Positions 346-49,224 are shown, counted from the first letter of the stretch. The stretch is 64,000 nt of DNA from a bacterium (GCA_963662285.2 CAXXMV010000003.1:128001-192000), one strand, 5' to 3'. Made by a program: numbers and translations. The notes: generated from the sequence alone by a model not told the origin.

Positions 346-1785
346 TTAGTATAGCGTCCAGTCTGTTACAGGCGTTCCTTTGTCTACGGTTACGCGGACG
401 TTATCAACGACCCAGAAACCTTCCATTTGATCAGGATCGGCGCCTTTGGCTGCAAAGCGGAAGATGACGCCGCTTTTACCGGCAGCTTCAGGAACTTCAA
501 AGTAATGATGGGTGAAATAAGGAGATTCCTCGTAATTCGTCAAAGCTTCGTGATAAGTGAAGAGGCGGGTGAAATTAGCGCCAGAGTCAACGCTGTAGAA
601 AACTTCATAACGGGCAATACTATTACCAACCAGCACTTCTGAATCGAAATCCATGTAAACGGCGGCAGCGTCGCTAAGATCGAGAGTTGGAGTATCGAGG
701 TCAGCGCCTTGATCTACATCTTCGGCCAACATACCTTCTTGCCACATGGCGTAACCCTGACCAGCCAGCATGAGTACCCATCTGCCATCAAGCGTGCCAT
801 TAGGATTAAGCAATTCATCAACTTCTGTGGCTAGGTCAATAGTATATTCGTAGAATTTTGCATGGTTGAGTAGGTCGATATCAACGAATTCACCGTTTTT
901 CTCTTTAAGAGGACCTTCATCCAAATACCATAGGCAGCGTACATCCCACTTTTGATCTTTTGCAGGAGTATTGCCCCATTCGGCTGGAATGCCATTTTCA
1001 AAATCTTCAGAAAGAACAGTTTCTGCGCCTAGTGGAGCAGGGGTAGAATCAATCACGAGGTCATCGATAGCAACCCACCATGCATCGGCTGGTTCAAAGT
1101 AACCAAAACGCAGGCGAACTTCAGCTTGATTGGCTGCTGCGGCTGGTAATGGAAAATGCACCCGGCCATGAATTCCGTCAAAACTCAAAAATTGATTGGC
1201 GCTTCCCAGTTCTGGATATCCACCTGAGAAAGCTGCGCCGTCAATGCCATTATCCCAGCCTTTGATGGGGCGTTGTGGTTCAACGCATTGCCAGATGGGA
1301 AGCCAGGTTGCGCCGCCATCAATAGTGACAGCAAACTGGAAGACGCATTCGCCGTTGTTATTTGAATCAACTTCGACATTGGCGTGCATCCAGACTTCGC
1401 TGGCGCCGACTGTGCTGAAAACTGGCGTTAATGCCCAGATTTCGGATTCTGAGCCAATATTGTCAGAACCGCTGCCAGCATCAGAGTCGGCCATTAAGTA
1501 ACCGCCATCAGAAGCAGTACCATCGGCTTTAGGTGGATTGATAAAGCCTGTGTCGGTTCCAGGACCATCCTGGCCTTCAGGCCATTCTGGAGCGATAATG
1601 AAGTTACTGCCAACTTCAGCAACAAATTCGTTTTCAGTAAATTCCCAACCACGGGATAGTGCGCCGACGGTGCCTCCCGTGTTAAAATCGTCTTCGAAAA
1701 AAACTTGAGCATTACTTTGAGGTACGCACAATATGAGAGCTGCGAGACTAGTTAAAGCGAAAATTTTCAGAGATGTTCTTATCAT
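346..1785 (-). CDS. Secreted acidic protein with two MAM/cleaved-adhesin-like beta-sandwich domains and C-terminal TPVTDWTLY tail (paralog 1, 479 aa)
   Basis: Start moved to MIRTSLK (ATG 1785, GGAGG upstream), which gives the same length as paralog 2. Sec signal ending SNA|Q; FEDDF/SEDFENGIP and WxxDxV motifs. Domain call is by motif recognition only. Confidence 0.8.
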   Translation of the reverse strand: MIRTSLKIFALTSLAALILCVPQSNAQVFFEDDFNTGGTVGALSRGWEFTENEFVAEVGSNFIIAPEWPEGQDGPGTDTGFINPPKADGTASDGGYLMADSDAGSGSDNIGSESEIWALTPVFSTVGASEVWMHANVEVDSNNNGECVFQFAVTIDGGATWLPIWQCVEPQRPIKGWDNGIDGAAFSGGYPELGSANQFLSFDGIHGRVHFPLPAAAANQAEVRLRFGYFEPADAWWVAIDDLVIDSTPAPLGAETVLSEDFENGIPAEWGNTPAKDQKWDVRCLWYLDEGPLKEKNGEFVDIDLLNHAKFYEYTIDLATEVDELLNPNGTLDGRWVLMLAGQGYAMWQEGMLAEDVDQGADLDTPTLDLSDAAAVYMDFDSEVLVGNSIARYEVFYSVDSGANFTRLFTYHEALTNYEESPYFTHHYFEVPEAAGKSGVIFRFAAKGADPDQMEGFWVVDNVRVTVDKGTPVTDWTLY

Positions 1786-2185
1786 GGATAATCCTCCTAT
1801 TTTATTATACTTATAGTCTTTCTTTACTTCATTAAGGCTGTTCGTTGAAACATTGATGAGAAACCAAATCATATTAATTTGAAAATTTAACATAATTTTA
1901 ATACTGATGGAAGTAGAAAATACAAAAAATCAGAAAACATTCGATCTAGTGGTGGATGGATATATTACCTCGCTTTCTGTAATATTCATTAGATTAAAAG
2001 AATATATTTTGTAAATCGCTCTAGTCGGCGGTTATGATGTGAAATATTTCTTTAATTATCACATGAGAAGAATATATAGCGGAAATGTTTTGGCTTTATA
2101 AAGGGGATGTTTGATTTGTGTGATTTTTCGTGAGAGGGAGGTGGTTAAAAGGAAAATCAGTTATTTTTTAAACCGGGAAGAAAAA

Positions 2186-2382: not shown

Positions 2383-3822
2383 CTAGTATAGCGTCCAATC
2401 TGTTACAGGAGTTCCCTTGTCAACAGTTACGCGAACGTTATCAACAACCCAGAAACCGTTCATTTGGTCAGGATCGGCGCCTTTGGCTGCAAAGCGGAAG
2501 ATTACGCCGCTTTTACCAGCAGCATCAGGAACTTCAAAGTAATGATGGGTGAAATAAGGGGATTCTTCGTAATTCGTCAAAGCTTCGTGATAAGTGAAAA
2601 GGCGGGTGAAATTAGCGCCGGAATCAACGCTGTAGAAAACTTCATAACGGACATCGCCATTACCAGCCAGCACTTCGGAATCGAAATCCATGTAAACGGC
2701 GGCAGCGTCGCTAAGATCGAGAGTTGGCGTATCTAAGTCAGCGCCTTGATCTACGTCTTCGGCCAGCATACCTTCTTGCCACATGGCGTAACCCTGACCA
2801 GCCAGCATGAGAACCCATCTGCCATCAAGGCTGCCGTTGGGATTTAGAAATTCGTCAACTTCTGTAGTAAAGTCGATGGTATAGTCCATGGATGCTGCAT
2901 GGTCAAGGATGTCGATATCAACGAATTCGCCATTATTTTCTTTGAGAGGACCTTCATCCAAATACCAAAGAGCTCTTACATCCCAAGCTTGAGTCATCAA
3001 TGGAGTGTTGCCCCATGTTGCCGGGATGCCATTTTCGAAATCTTCAGAAAGAACTGTTTCTGCGCCTTGAGGAGCAGGATTAGTATCAATCACGAGGTCA
3101 TCTAGAGCAATCCACCATGCATCGGCAGGTTCTAAGTATCCAAAGCGTAAACGAACTTCAGCTTGGTTAGCTGCTTCGGCTGGCAATTGGAAATGCACCC
3201 GGCCATGAATACCATCATAACTTAAAAATTGGTTAGCGCTTCCCAGTTCGGGATATCCGCCGGAGAAAGCTGCGCCATCAATGACATTATCCCAGGCTTT
3301 AATGGGGCGTTGTGGTTCAACGCATTGCCAGATGGGCAACCAAGTGGCGCCGCCATCAATAGTGACGGCAAACTGGAATACGCATTCGCCGTTGTTATTT
3401 GAATCAACGTCAACATTGGCGTGCATCCAGACTTCACTGGCGCCTACGGTGCTGAAGACGGGCGTCAAAGCCCAGATTTCAGATTCGGAGCCAATGTTAT
3501 CAGAACCGGAACCGGCATCTGAGTCAGCTATTAAGAAACCGCCATCTGATGCAGTACCATCGGCTTTAGGTGGATTGATGAAATCTGTGTTAGTTCCAGG
3601 GCCGTCTTGACCTTCAGGCCATTCTGGAGCAACGATGAAGTTACTGCCAACTTCGGCAACAAATTCGTTTTCTACAAATTCCCAACCACGAGCAACGGCG
3701 CCAGCGGTGCCGCCTGTATTAAAATCGTCTTCGAAGAGCACTTGAGCATTACTCTGAACTACGCCCAATGTAAGAGCGGCGATGCCGGATAATACTAAAG
3801 TTTTCAGAGATGTCTTGATCAT
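2383..3822 (-). CDS. Secreted acidic MAM/adhesin-like protein with C-terminal TPVTDWTLY tail (paralog 2, 479 aa)
   Basis: Colinear with 346-1785 and highly similar over its full length; GGAGG RBS; Sec signal peptide. Confidence 0.85.
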   Translation of the reverse strand: MIKTSLKTLVLSGIAALTLGVVQSNAQVLFEDDFNTGGTAGAVARGWEFVENEFVAEVGSNFIVAPEWPEGQDGPGTNTDFINPPKADGTASDGGFLIADSDAGSGSDNIGSESEIWALTPVFSTVGASEVWMHANVDVDSNNNGECVFQFAVTIDGGATWLPIWQCVEPQRPIKAWDNVIDGAAFSGGYPELGSANQFLSYDGIHGRVHFQLPAEAANQAEVRLRFGYLEPADAWWIALDDLVIDTNPAPQGAETVLSEDFENGIPATWGNTPLMTQAWDVRALWYLDEGPLKENNGEFVDIDILDHAASMDYTIDFTTEVDEFLNPNGSLDGRWVLMLAGQGYAMWQEGMLAEDVDQGADLDTPTLDLSDAAAVYMDFDSEVLAGNGDVRYEVFYSVDSGANFTRLFTYHEALTNYEESPYFTHHYFEVPDAAGKSGVIFRFAAKGADPDQMNGFWVVDNVRVTVDKGTPVTDWTLY

Positions 3823-4319
3823 TGATTGTCCTCCAATAATTTATTGTACGTCAAAAATCTGATAAAACCTGTCGTTAAAACAAGGATGAGTAATGTATAA
3901 CATATCATAATATAATATTCTTAACTATTTATTATTACATATATGAATACACTTTACGAGTTATGCAAGGGGGAATATATTAATTTTTCATTAAAAATAC
4001 ATTAGAATAACGGTAAATTTATGGCTTAAAGTAAAATATATGCTTTTTGCATTAACAATATGTAATCAAATTGGCAATATTATATGCGACCATGCCTTTA
4101 ACAAGATAATCAACCAAGTGAATTGGGGATTGGGTATTCAATATTCGAGGTTTTTGCATGAGTGCTAACAACAGTTTCAGGATAAATGAGATTGTTTCTA
4201 AATAGTAATGTTAGTTTGCAGTAGTTATCTAGAGGGAGATATAATATAAAATATCATGGAATGTTTTATTGCAAATTTCTATTAAGAAAAAAAATAGTGA
4301 TATTACCCGAAAAAAGTGA

Positions 4320-4348
4320 TTGACAACGTAGAAATGATAGAGTATATT
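4320..4348 (+). promoter_or_regulatory. Sigma70-type promoter
   Basis: TTGACA (4320-4325), 17-nt spacer, TATATT (4343-4348), with an A-tract upstream. Confidence 0.75.
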
Positions 4349-4354
4349 TATAAG

Positions 4355-4573
4355 TAGATCGACGGATAACAGATCCGGTTTCGATAAGGATTGAGCGCCT
4401 TAACAGCTCTGCGTGGGCAATGTGGCTAATGCCATGAGCCGCGAGAATAGGTCCCTAAGGGGATTACGAATATATTGTTAACTAAGGTGAAAGAGAGGTC
4501 ATACAGCGTGGAAGAAACGCTTATAGACTTTTGAGAAGGAGTCGTTCGAAACTGAATGACTCCTTCTTATTTT
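4355..4573 (+). ncRNA. Putative structured non-coding RNA of unknown family
   Basis: A GC-richer island in an AT-rich spacer, bounded by a near-consensus promoter and a terminator. Several hairpins can be folded by eye; no convincing ORF. Confidence 0.6.
4534..4573 (+). terminator. Intrinsic terminator
   Basis: AGAAGGAGTCGTTC-gaaact-GAATGACTCCTTCT followed by TATTTT. Confidence 0.8.
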
Positions 4574-4615
4574 AAATGAATTATTAATATATCTTTACAA
4601 TTGTAAAAATATATT

Positions 4616-6526
4616 CTATTTTACTATATTACTTGTTCCAAGTAATGCATTCAGCGTGTGATTTGCAACGCGTATTACGTATTTATTATTGTCTTTCATA
4701 ACTGCCTGTAGACTGGTAATCGAAGGACGAGCCATCTCTCCAATATTGTCTAGCGCAATTGCCGCGTTAAGGCGAATCCATTCTTCTTCACTTTTTAATA
4801 GTTTTTCCAAAACAGGAAGCGCTTTTTCAGGTTGATTCATGCGGCAAAGAGCGCGAGCTGCTGCGATTTGTACGCTGCCGGATTGGTCGCTGAGGGCTTC
4901 GGTTAGAAGAGTTTCCGCTTTTGATGCGTCTGAGCCAAGGTTGCCCAGGCCAATGGCGCCCCAATAACGAACTATCGAATCGACGTCGTTCAATGCTTCG
5001 ATAAGACTATTGATGCCTTTGGCGCCTTGTTCTGGAAGTTGGGCTGCGGCAATGGTGCGTTCGATTAATGCGTCTCCGCCAGTTTGCCGGGCAATGGCGT
5101 ATTCACTACCGAATTTTTTAGTGCGCTCGCGGATTTCCGGTTCGGGAATAAAACCTATGTCTTTGGTCTCTTTGACCCACTTTACATGAGCCTTACGCAT
5201 ACGTTTAAGAATATCTTGGCATCGGGGCGACTTCGCTAAGTTATTGGTTTCGTGGGGATCGTTTTGCAAATCATACAGTTCTTCCAAAGGCTTTTGCGGC
5301 GCCATGAATAGTTGCGCTTGGGGTGGTAACTTTCCTTCAGCATGAACCCGGCGGATTTCTTTCATGGTGGCGCCCTTTTCGGGGGTGTTCATGTATTGAT
5401 AGTAGGTTTTGTAAGGTTCGTAGTTACGGATGTACTTGTAGCGTTTGTCGCGAACCGCACGGATTATGTCGTAGCGTTCATCCATGCGGTCTCGTGCGCC
5501 ATATATGTAGTCGCGTGGTCTGGTGAGGTTCTCTCCTAGAAAAGCGCGTCCCTGCATGTGATCGGGTATCTTGATTCCCGCCAGGTTAAGAACGGTCGGG
5601 GCGAGGTCGACGAAACTGACCAGTTCGTCATTGGTTGAACCGGGTGCGCCAGGTTTAGGGCTGCGCAGTTTTTCAGGGATGTGAACGATCATTGGTACGC
5701 GCAATCCAGAATCGTATAACCAGCGTTTGGCGCGGGGCAAACCAATGCCATGATCGGAGAAAAAGATAACGATAGTGTTATCCGTTAATCCATCATCATC
5801 CAATTGCTTTAGAATTTCCGCGACCTGCATATCCATAGCGGTAATCAAATCGTAGTTACGCGCCCAATCTTTTCGGGTGATCGGGGTATCTGGATAGTAG
5901 GGGGGAAGGGTGGTTAATTTTTCTGGATCATGCTTTTGGTCATCAGAAAGGTTTTGGGTTGCTTTGTTATATAATTCTTCGCTGGCGATGCGGCTTTCAT
6001 GAGTGGTTACGAAATTGAAGATGGAGAAGAATGGTTGGTCTTTATTTTTGCGGTAGCGCCAGTGGGCTTTATTATCGCATTGATCCCAGGCCGATTTTGG
6101 GTGATTGAACTGATAATCAGTCTTGGCGTTATTGGTGCAATAATATCCTGCATCACGCATGTATTCGCTGAAGCATTTGATGTGGGGCGGGGGAGTCGCT
6201 TTGCAGCGCATGTGATGCGAACCTAGGGTGGTTTGGTATACTCCGGTAATGATGCATGAGCGGTTGGGAGCGCATACTCCACATACGGCGTAGGCGTTGG
6301 TATAGCGAACGCCATTGCGGGCGAGACGGTCGAGAGTGGGCGTGGTTGCGTGAGGATCGCCGTAACAACCCAGGTGGGGGCTGATATCTTCACAGGTGAG
6401 CCATAGAATATTGGGCTTCTGGCTATCATCTTGACTAGCCAGCGTATTGTGCGCTATCGATATTGATGCGGCGCTCAGGCTGGTTGTTTTGAGAAAACTT
6501 CGTCGGTTTAGATTATTGAGTTTCAT
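4616..6526 (-). CDS. Tat-exported sulfatase with C-terminal HEAT repeats
   Basis: NRRSFLK Tat motif; KPNILW; CAPNR formylglycine motif; SDHG; EELYDL; HEAT-like C-terminus. Confidence 0.92.
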   Translation of the reverse strand: MKLNNLNRRSFLKTTSLSAASISIAHNTLASQDDSQKPNILWLTCEDISPHLGCYGDPHATTPTLDRLARNGVRYTNAYAVCGVCAPNRSCIITGVYQTTLGSHHMRCKATPPPHIKCFSEYMRDAGYYCTNNAKTDYQFNHPKSAWDQCDNKAHWRYRKNKDQPFFSIFNFVTTHESRIASEELYNKATQNLSDDQKHDPEKLTTLPPYYPDTPITRKDWARNYDLITAMDMQVAEILKQLDDDGLTDNTIVIFFSDHGIGLPRAKRWLYDSGLRVPMIVHIPEKLRSPKPGAPGSTNDELVSFVDLAPTVLNLAGIKIPDHMQGRAFLGENLTRPRDYIYGARDRMDERYDIIRAVRDKRYKYIRNYEPYKTYYQYMNTPEKGATMKEIRRVHAEGKLPPQAQLFMAPQKPLEELYDLQNDPHETNNLAKSPRCQDILKRMRKAHVKWVKETKDIGFIPEPEIRERTKKFGSEYAIARQTGGDALIERTIAAAQLPEQGAKGINSLIEALNDVDSIVRYWGAIGLGNLGSDASKAETLLTEALSDQSGSVQIAAARALCRMNQPEKALPVLEKLLKSEEEWIRLNAAIALDNIGEMARPSITSLQAVMKDNNKYVIRVANHTLNALLGTSNIVK

Positions 6527-49151: not shown

Positions 49152-49224
49152 TGAGGGATGTGGGGCTCGAACCCACGACCCTCTGCTTAAAAGGCAGATG
49201 CTCTACCGACTGAGCTAATCCCTC
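49152..49224 (-). tRNA. tRNA-Lys (anticodon UUU), CCA not encoded
   Basis: GAGGGATTAGCTCAGTCGGTAGAGCATCTGCCTTTTAAGCAGAGGGTCGTGGGTTCGAGCCCCACATCCCTCA folds as a cloverleaf. Confidence 0.97.

Follow-up and report, generated by a model that had tools for sequence, protein, structure and literature searches.

A conserved, structured small RNA family with a mini-ORF signature at the foot of its terminator hairpin in a little-known bacterial lineage

The window analysed here is a stretch of 64,000 nucleotides of bacterial DNA (GCA_963662285.2 CAXXMV010000003.1:128001-192000), and all positions are counted from its first letter. Between two minus-strand genes, one encoding a 479-aa protein with a weak, sub-threshold match to Reelin subrepeat B and the other a sulfatase with HEAT repeats, lies a small transcription unit on the opposite strand, which diverges from the first gene and converges on the second (Table 1). 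Its promoter matches 11 of 12 consensus positions and is the best promoter-like site in 3800-4700, although such sites as a class are not enriched there (9 found against 6.0 +/- 2.4 in shuffles). Only one terminator-like site was found (1 against 0.3 +/- 0.5 in shuffles). The stretch 4354-4573 folds at -78 kcal/mol against -53.5 +/- 3.9 for 200 dinucleotide shuffles (z = -6.3), and none of the shuffles folds as well. An earlier note, made from the sequence alone, had described an independent, structured RNA with its own promoter and terminator at this position, and that observation is confirmed.

Table 1. Features of the small transcription unit and its neighbours, in window coordinates.
Feature	Position	Strand	Remarks
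Neighbouring ORF (weak Reelin-subrepeat-B match)	2383-3822	-	
A-run just upstream of the -35 hexamer	4310-4315	+	Possible UP-like element (function inferred); A-runs precede the -35 hexamer in orthologues and paralogues as well
Sigma-70-type promoter	4320-4348	+	TTGACA-N17-TATATT; both hexamers kept in G005 and G017
Predicted transcript	4354-4573	+	About 215-220 nt; start predicted 6-9 nt after the -10 hexamer, end in the T-run
P1, 5' hairpin	4358-4385	+	ATCGA-CGGAT/ATCCG-TCGAT; GGAT/ATCC changes to GGAC/GTCC in G005 and G017
P2 hairpin	4393-4409	+	GAGC/GCTC with the 9-nt loop L2 (4397-4405); all 4 pairs show changes on both sides (GAGC/GCUC, GGAC/GUCC, GGGC/GCCC, GGGU/ACCC, AGGG/CCCU)
P3, two-part hairpin	4412-4443	+	Outer stem 4412-4416/4439-4443, internal loop, inner stem 4422-4426/4431-4435; compensatory changes in 5 of 5 outer and 3 of 5 inner pairs
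P4 hairpin	4450-4465	+	GGTCCC-TAAG-GGGATT; most conserved element; GUCCC-N4-GGGAU exact in 10 of 23 aligned members, 95% of cells paired
Strand complementary to L2 (candidate pseudoknot)	4476-4488	+	9 possible pairs with a bulge; duplex z = -3.3 against shuffled loops
Shine-Dalgarno-like GAAAGAGAGG	4489-4498	+	9 nt before the GTG; complementary to the 16S 3' end ...CCUCCUUUCU
P5 hairpin	4494-4531	+	Conserved core 4506-4509/4517-4520, loop GGAAGAA; outer part specific to close relatives; seen in the MFE fold; compensatory changes in 4 of 5 core pairs; stem holds the start codon
Putative mini-ORF	4508-4534	+	GTG (4508), seven codons and TGA (4532-4534), MEETLIDF*; the TGA forms the lowest pairs of the hairpin
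Terminator hairpin and T-run	4532-4573	+	17 pairs (4532-4569) with conserved base GAAGGAGTC.../...GACTCCTTC; T-run 4570-4573
Neighbouring ORF (sulfatase with HEAT repeats)	4616-6526	-	

The RNA matches no family in Rfam 15. At gathering thresholds the window holds only a tRNA (49152-49224), and a search of 4150-4700 ranked by E-value returned eight far-sub-threshold matches, none of them credible, with best in-region scores of 16-24 bits against cut-offs of 47-90. Eight loci with other members of the family gave nothing either, except for a chance miRNA hit on a palindrome. A divergent housekeeping RNA can also be rejected, given that the same genome (7.29 Mb, 8 contigs) carries ordinary 6S, small SRP, tmRNA and RNase P RNA genes on other contigs, all above cut-off (66.3, 69.8, 201.8 and 311.2 bits, respectively). 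Searches of plasmid and phage collections returned no match.

BLASTN found one copy in the own genome and orthologues at 76% identity in 2 of 40 related genomes (G005 and G017), and in the three-way alignment the -35 and -10 hexamers, the body and the terminator are all kept. A first covariance model (R1) pulled in more distant members, while its weak hits in three further entries (L022, L023 and L024) looked like chance and were dropped. A second model (R2), built from ten sequences and including the 3' hairpin, finds members in 17 of 19 other genomes of the same bacterial family, in 0 of 6 genomes of other families of the order, and in 0 of 15 genomes of all other families of the phylum (35 genomes in all); the two family genomes without a match are 82-86% complete. 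An exact-pattern scan of 185,579 species genomes returned 11 loci, of which six belong to this lineage and five are chance hits in unrelated MAGs that R1 does not match. Of 16 loci returned by a metagenome scan for the hairpin motif, five are full-length members, whereas the rest are hairpin-only sequences from other contexts. The family is therefore real but phylogenetically narrow.

The predicted structure is supported by comparative data. On 23 members aligned to R2, 90% of cells form standard pairs, against 38-49% when partners are slid by 1-3 columns; 24 of 35 pairs show changes on both sides, and none of 500 shuffles reaches the observed values. The alignment was fitted to the model, which favours it, and the members are related by descent, so that these and all other counts given here overstate independence. 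P1 covaries among close orthologues but is replaced by unrelated hairpins in distant members, where 14 of 23 sequences have z below -1.5 on partly cut segments. Of the helices proposed in the note, 4358-4385 (P1), 4451-4464 (P4) and the core of 4496-4530 (P5) are real, and 4407-4445 is real as a two-part hairpin (P3a and P3b). In contrast, the proposed long-range closing stem between 4396-4405 and 4476-4489 is replaced by the note's own alternative, the short P2 hairpin with a loop-to-downstream pairing, because the GAGC/GCUC stem covaries. The same relation between L2 and the downstream strand holds with quite different sequences in the related genome G009 (eight perfect pairs) and in member L073, yet over 21 members own-partner duplexes are only modestly better than swapped ones (-5.14 against -4.42 kcal/mol, permutation p about 0.02), and the pseudoknot is plausible but not settled.

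R2 also found four further, weaker members in the own genome, which thus has five. Three of these are near-identical copies, two in tandem on one contig (C1) and one on another (C6), and the fourth is a different copy on C1. All four lack P2-P4 altogether and share with the window copy the 5' hairpin, the promoter style (an A-run, then a -35 hexamer beginning TTG) and the 3' part. This constant 3' module reads GAAAGG, hairpin P5, a linker of constant length, and a hairpin whose lower eleven pairs are almost invariant in sequence across 23 members (5' arm GGAAGGAGUCA, itself SD-like; 3' arm UGRCUCCUUCC, anti-SD-like), while its upper part covaries. The hairpin motif occurs only twice in the 7.3-Mb genome, the other instance (contig C2, position 1608204) being an ordinary terminator between convergent genes. 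The module ends in a short U-run, which is weak or interrupted in several members. Other genomes hold one to about five members, and in the related genomes G013 and G010 two P2-P4-type domains stand in tandem before one 3' module.

Reading the 3' module in frame reveals a short ORF in nearly every member. Among 34 sense-strand members from 18 genomes, 31 have a stop codon directly against the hairpin (TGA 13, TAA 11, TAG 7) and 30 have an ATG, GTG or TTG 5-10 codons upstream in the same open frame, whereas the antisense strand of the same hairpins gives 11 of 34 and 1 of 34, respectively. The frame survives differences in P5 loop length that are not multiples of three: with 7-nt loops the start (GUG or AUG) lies in the P5 stem and the ORF has 8 codons, with longer loops an AUG lies in the loop and the ORF has 9-10 codons, and in a third group the AUG lies in the 3' strand and the ORF has 5 codons. 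The peptide consensus is x-[DE]-[TA]-P-[PT]-[DE]-x-stop, with Pro at -4 in 23 of 31, Pro at -3 in 18 of 31, and Asp or Glu at -2 in 18 of 31. Variation has a period of three and is highest at third codon positions; the three near-identical paralogues keep Pro-Pro through CCA CCA, CCA CCG and CCG CCU, and two related genomes, G006 and G019, differ by AGG against CGU, both Arg. The GAAAGG-type motif lies 3-13 nt before the start and is complementary to the 3' end of the organism's 16S rRNA, ...CACCUCCUUUCU, and genes in the window commonly carry SD-like sites (21 of 35 against an 11.5% background).

There are exceptions to this pattern. Three members read into the hairpin and stop in its loop. 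One genome member (L086) and its metagenome relatives (L094 and L102) keep the in-frame E-T-P-[PT]-D-G-stop but have no ATG, GTG or TTG start. The window copy and its two nearest orthologues lack Pro-Pro (T-L-I-D, A-L-A-E and T-L-V-E). In the predicted fold of the window copy, the SD-like motif and the start codon are buried in P5. In addition, ACG-CCA-CC is partly the 3' strand of P5, and CACC can pair with an upstream GGUG, so part of the conservation could be at the RNA level. Two other frames were considered and rejected. The 15-codon ORF starting at ATG 4435, whose conservation the note had named as grounds against its reading, is not conserved, as the ATG is present in 3 of the 10 aligned homologues. 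A second ORF starting at the RUG in the 3' arm of the hairpin lacks its start in several members, has downstream frames that are not conserved, and lies about 15-20 nt from the SD-like arm.

The RNA appears in RNA libraries. Seven RNA runs share words with the stretch, and four of these, each from a different study, were compared with it. Three metatranscriptome assemblies each hold one contig of 151-178 nt, 95-99% alike, which cover 4366-4543, 4366-4540 and 4388-4538, while the fourth run holds short pieces within 4380-4498 with adapter sequence at their ends. Nothing covers the promoter, the flanking genes or the region past the hairpin, although the uncovered parts of 4200-4700 carry no information. 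Contigs cannot show strand, ends or level, and DNA can contaminate RNA libraries; still, cover confined to the predicted RNA in independent studies is a fair hint that close relatives express it as a short species.

The genomic context does not fit a classic cis-acting leader. The genes downstream of the strong homologues are unrelated to each other (ceramidase-like, BNR sialidase-like, a MurB operon, ThrRS, an MFS transporter, or a convergent gene). By rough ORF calls, the next gene is co-oriented in 12 of 26 loci and convergent in 14, and one of the convergent calls conflicts with a Pfam-supported co-oriented gene, which makes it 13 and 13. About half of the loci have nothing co-oriented to regulate.

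The interpretation offered in the note, a novel sRNA, ribozyme or RNP scaffold, is partly supported. The RNA is an independent, structured and conserved gene, is not a leader of its neighbours, and is none of 6S, SRP, tmRNA or RNase P; however, nothing points to a ribozyme or an RNP scaffold. The note missed that the RNA belongs to a multi-copy family with a constant 3' module, and that this module looks like a translation unit. The RNA is thus probably not purely non-coding, but a leader-peptide-type switch or a dual-function small RNA.

We consider a stand-alone, leader-peptide-type, ribosome-sensing switch the best reading, albeit one we hold to be about as likely as not. In this view, the 5' domain, which differs between subfamilies, and P5 would decide whether a ribosome can load on the mini-ORF; P5 buries the start codon, so the upstream domain may gate ribosome loading. 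A ribosome that reaches the stop codon would have to unwind the lower part of the hairpin. To place the stop codon in its A site, a ribosome must hold roughly the next 7-10 nt in its channel, which here is the SD-like 5' arm, so that translation to the stop and an intact hairpin would exclude each other. Translation would therefore set whether the hairpin forms, and this in turn would set termination, the stability of the short RNA, or read-through into whatever lies downstream. In most members the peptide carries [TA]-P-[PT]-[DE], a slow-to-translate motif placed so that a paused ribosome would stop just short of the hairpin, and in one study PPD was found only among EF-P-dependent pause sites (PMC4140641). 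For the window copy, which has no co-oriented downstream gene, the output would be the short RNA itself or read-through antisense to the convergent sulfatase gene. Our analysis establishes the gene, its conservation, its structure, the sequence signature of the mini-ORF with its stop codon in contact with a conserved hairpin, and its presence in RNA libraries, whereas translation, termination and every step of the switch are inferred. The model does not explain why the stem must have an SD/anti-SD-like sequence.

The strongest alternative, although unlikely, is a purely non-coding, trans-acting small RNA family, in which the variable 5' domain would recognise targets or bind a protein, the constant 3' module would serve as a chaperone-binding platform plus terminator, and the mini-ORF would be a by-product of RNA constraints. 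The members are stand-alone genes with strong promoters and terminators, occur as several paralogues per genome and are restricted to one lineage, about half are convergent with the next gene, and members without a start codon keep the module. Hfq is encoded in the genome, and the purine-rich AGAAAGGAAGG, which is accompanied by a hairpin with a short U-run, resembles the A-R-N repeats of Hfq sites, although Hfq binding is only inferred from this resemblance. On the other hand, the site before the hairpin is always a stop codon in 31 of 34 members, uses all three stop codons and is never a sense U-G-G, and the preserved frame across non-triplet loop differences, the synonymous changes in Pro and Arg codons and the antisense control also argue against this reading.

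Less likely still, though compatible with the mini-ORF model, the 5' domain of the window subfamily might be a ligand-binding aptamer of an orphan riboswitch that switches termination in response to a metabolite. It is a compact multi-helix domain with conserved junctions, covariation in P2-P4 (on the model-fitted alignment) and a candidate pseudoknot, and the tandem domains in G013 and G010 recall tandem aptamers. However, there is no consistent class of downstream genes, half of the loci are convergent with the next gene, no Rfam aptamer matches, and other subfamilies replace the whole domain but keep the 3' module. A similarly doubtful possibility is a tiny protein-coding gene whose peptide of 5-10 residues is the functional molecule, perhaps a precursor for modification as with mccA, with the long structured 5' UTR only tuning expression. 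SD, ORF and terminator do form a complete gene layout, conservation is seen at peptide level, and several scattered copies occur per genome; yet the last residues vary freely with no fixed C-terminal residue, the immediate neighbours of the 9 loci examined by Pfam hold no modifying enzyme, and the invariable stop-to-hairpin contact and conserved stem sequence are not needed for a plain gene. A CsrA-titrating sponge or a repeated or mobile terminator element is very unlikely, since, although CsrA is encoded in 35 of 35 genomes of the phylum, GGA-containing purine runs are present and the family is multi-copy, only 2-3 GGA sites per RNA are conserved and the about 5 GGA in the 220-nt window RNA are by our estimate near chance (Csr/Rsm sponges carry many, mostly in hairpin loops), the family is limited to one family of bacteria while CsrA is found throughout the phylum, the hairpin motif is rare in the genome, plasmid and phage collections hold no match, and neither terminal repeats nor identical copies with target-site duplications were seen.

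A further reading goes beyond the best explanation and, while we deem it improbable, is not excluded by the evidence. The SD, a mini-ORF with a [TA]-P-P-[DE] pause motif, the stop codon touching an SD/anti-SD-mimicking hairpin and the U-run could constitute a modular, ribosome-arrest-based regulatory platform, which evolution has fused to several different structured sensor domains and scattered as stand-alone units. Each unit would read out translation capacity, for example EF-P or prolyl-tRNA status, gated by its own sensor domain, and its output would be a stable small RNA or conditional read-through, including antisense transcription into convergent genes.

Regulatory RNAs of candidate phyla that are known almost only from metagenomes are close to unexplored. 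Literature searches on RNA motifs and noncoding RNAs in Omnitrophica, and on Hinthialibacter as a merely presumed lineage name, listed nothing on RNAs of this lineage, which, judged from listings and titles only, is weak evidence of absence from print. The family is well supported and its plan is unusual, with interchangeable structured 5' domains joined to one constant module that looks like a translated mini-ORF locked against a sequence-conserved hairpin. If the module senses ribosomes, it would be a compact and portable translation-coupled switch and would extend leader-peptide logic from operon leaders to stand-alone RNAs. The invariant contact between stop codon and hairpin, together with the Pro-Pro-acid motif, makes this idea directly testable in vitro.

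Among known systems, leader-peptide transcription attenuators of the trp, his and pyrBI type likewise place a short SD-led ORF directly before an intrinsic terminator, so that the position of the ribosome could decide whether the hairpin forms; at the sequence level the RNA described here has this layout. It differs in having no run of regulatory codons tied to a pathway, a large structured domain upstream, a terminator stem conserved in sequence and, in about half of the members, no co-oriented downstream gene, and no alternative anti-terminator pairing was recognised by eye in the alignments. In the mccA transcript, a tiny ORF of 7 codons is followed at once by an intrinsic terminator, and ribosome binding governs termination and stabilises an abundant short RNA (PMC4231749); our family lacks the fixed C-terminal residue and, in the neighbours examined, adjacent modification genes, but has a long structured 5' domain and many scattered copies. 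The mgtA and mgtCBR leaders combine a structured sensor RNA with a short proline-containing ORF whose translation alters downstream termination, yet they are true 5' leaders of fixed operons and act through Rho, whereas the units described here are often stand-alone with an intrinsic-type hairpin. In arrest-peptide switches such as SecM-secA and MifM-yidC2, a slow or stalling peptide motif lies upstream of a hairpin that sequesters an SD-like sequence, here the 5' arm GGAAGGAG, but in our family no conserved start codon or gene is served by that arm, the peptides are far shorter, and the window copy lacks the Pro-Pro motif. Finally, while there is no sequence or Rfam relationship to dual-function or attenuator-derived small RNAs such as SgrS/SgrT and rnTrpL, and while we are not aware of a counterpart to the modular plan of a constant 3' module with interchangeable 5' domains, the family would share with them the principle of a small independent RNA that both folds into a functional structure and carries a short translated frame.

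The RNA gene is flanked by an AT-rich spacer of about 500 nt (GC about 0.30-0.37), which separates it from two adjacent paralogous ORFs, each with the same weak, sub-threshold C-terminal match to Reelin subrepeat B (24.6 and 24.9 bits, respectively, against a cut-off of 27). The only Rfam match in the window is an ordinary tRNA gene (76 bits). At the predicted start of the RNA itself, a GUAGA-like sequence follows directly after the -10 hexamer. Many paralogues and orthologues begin in a similar manner, and this might represent a conserved initial transcribed sequence.

Locations of the additional features in the window, in the same genome and in related genomes
Feature	Sequence	Position	Strand
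Paralogous ORF, 515 aa	window	346-1893	-
Paralogous ORF, 479 aa	window	2383-3822	-
GUAGA-like 5' end of the RNA	window	4354-4358	
tRNA gene	window	49152-49224	-
Second-subfamily paralogue, tandem	same genome, contig C1 (locus L078)	602677-602860 (L078 3678-3861)	
Second-subfamily paralogue, tandem	same genome, contig C1 (locus L078)	603080-603235 (L078 4081-4236)	
Second-subfamily paralogue	same genome, contig C6 (locus L080)	86895-87052 (L080 3896-4053)	
77-nt palindrome	same genome, contig C1 (locus L078)	L078 3459-3535	
Tandem P2-P4-type domains	genome G013 (locus L025)	1260-1640	
Tandem P2-P4-type domains	genome G010 (locus L020)	about 1390-1825	

The same genome also contains three near-identical paralogues of a second subfamily, two of which are arranged in tandem about 220 nt apart. 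Each has its own promoter-like site, and their mini-ORFs read MIEDTPPTK, MIEDTPPKM, and MIEDTPPTH. Just upstream of the tandem copies, a near-perfect palindrome matches the mir-5879 model equally on both strands (38 bits against a cut-off of 97), which is surely a chance hit on a long hairpin.

In two related genomes, G006 and G019 (loci L018 and L019), the genes downstream of the RNA are co-oriented BNR_2 (sialidase-like) genes with signal-peptide-like N-termini, which start about 45-50 nt after the hairpin and for which no obvious SD-like sequence of their own is visible. In G013 and G010, two P2-P4-type domains stand in tandem ahead of a single 3' module, an arrangement reminiscent of tandem aptamers.
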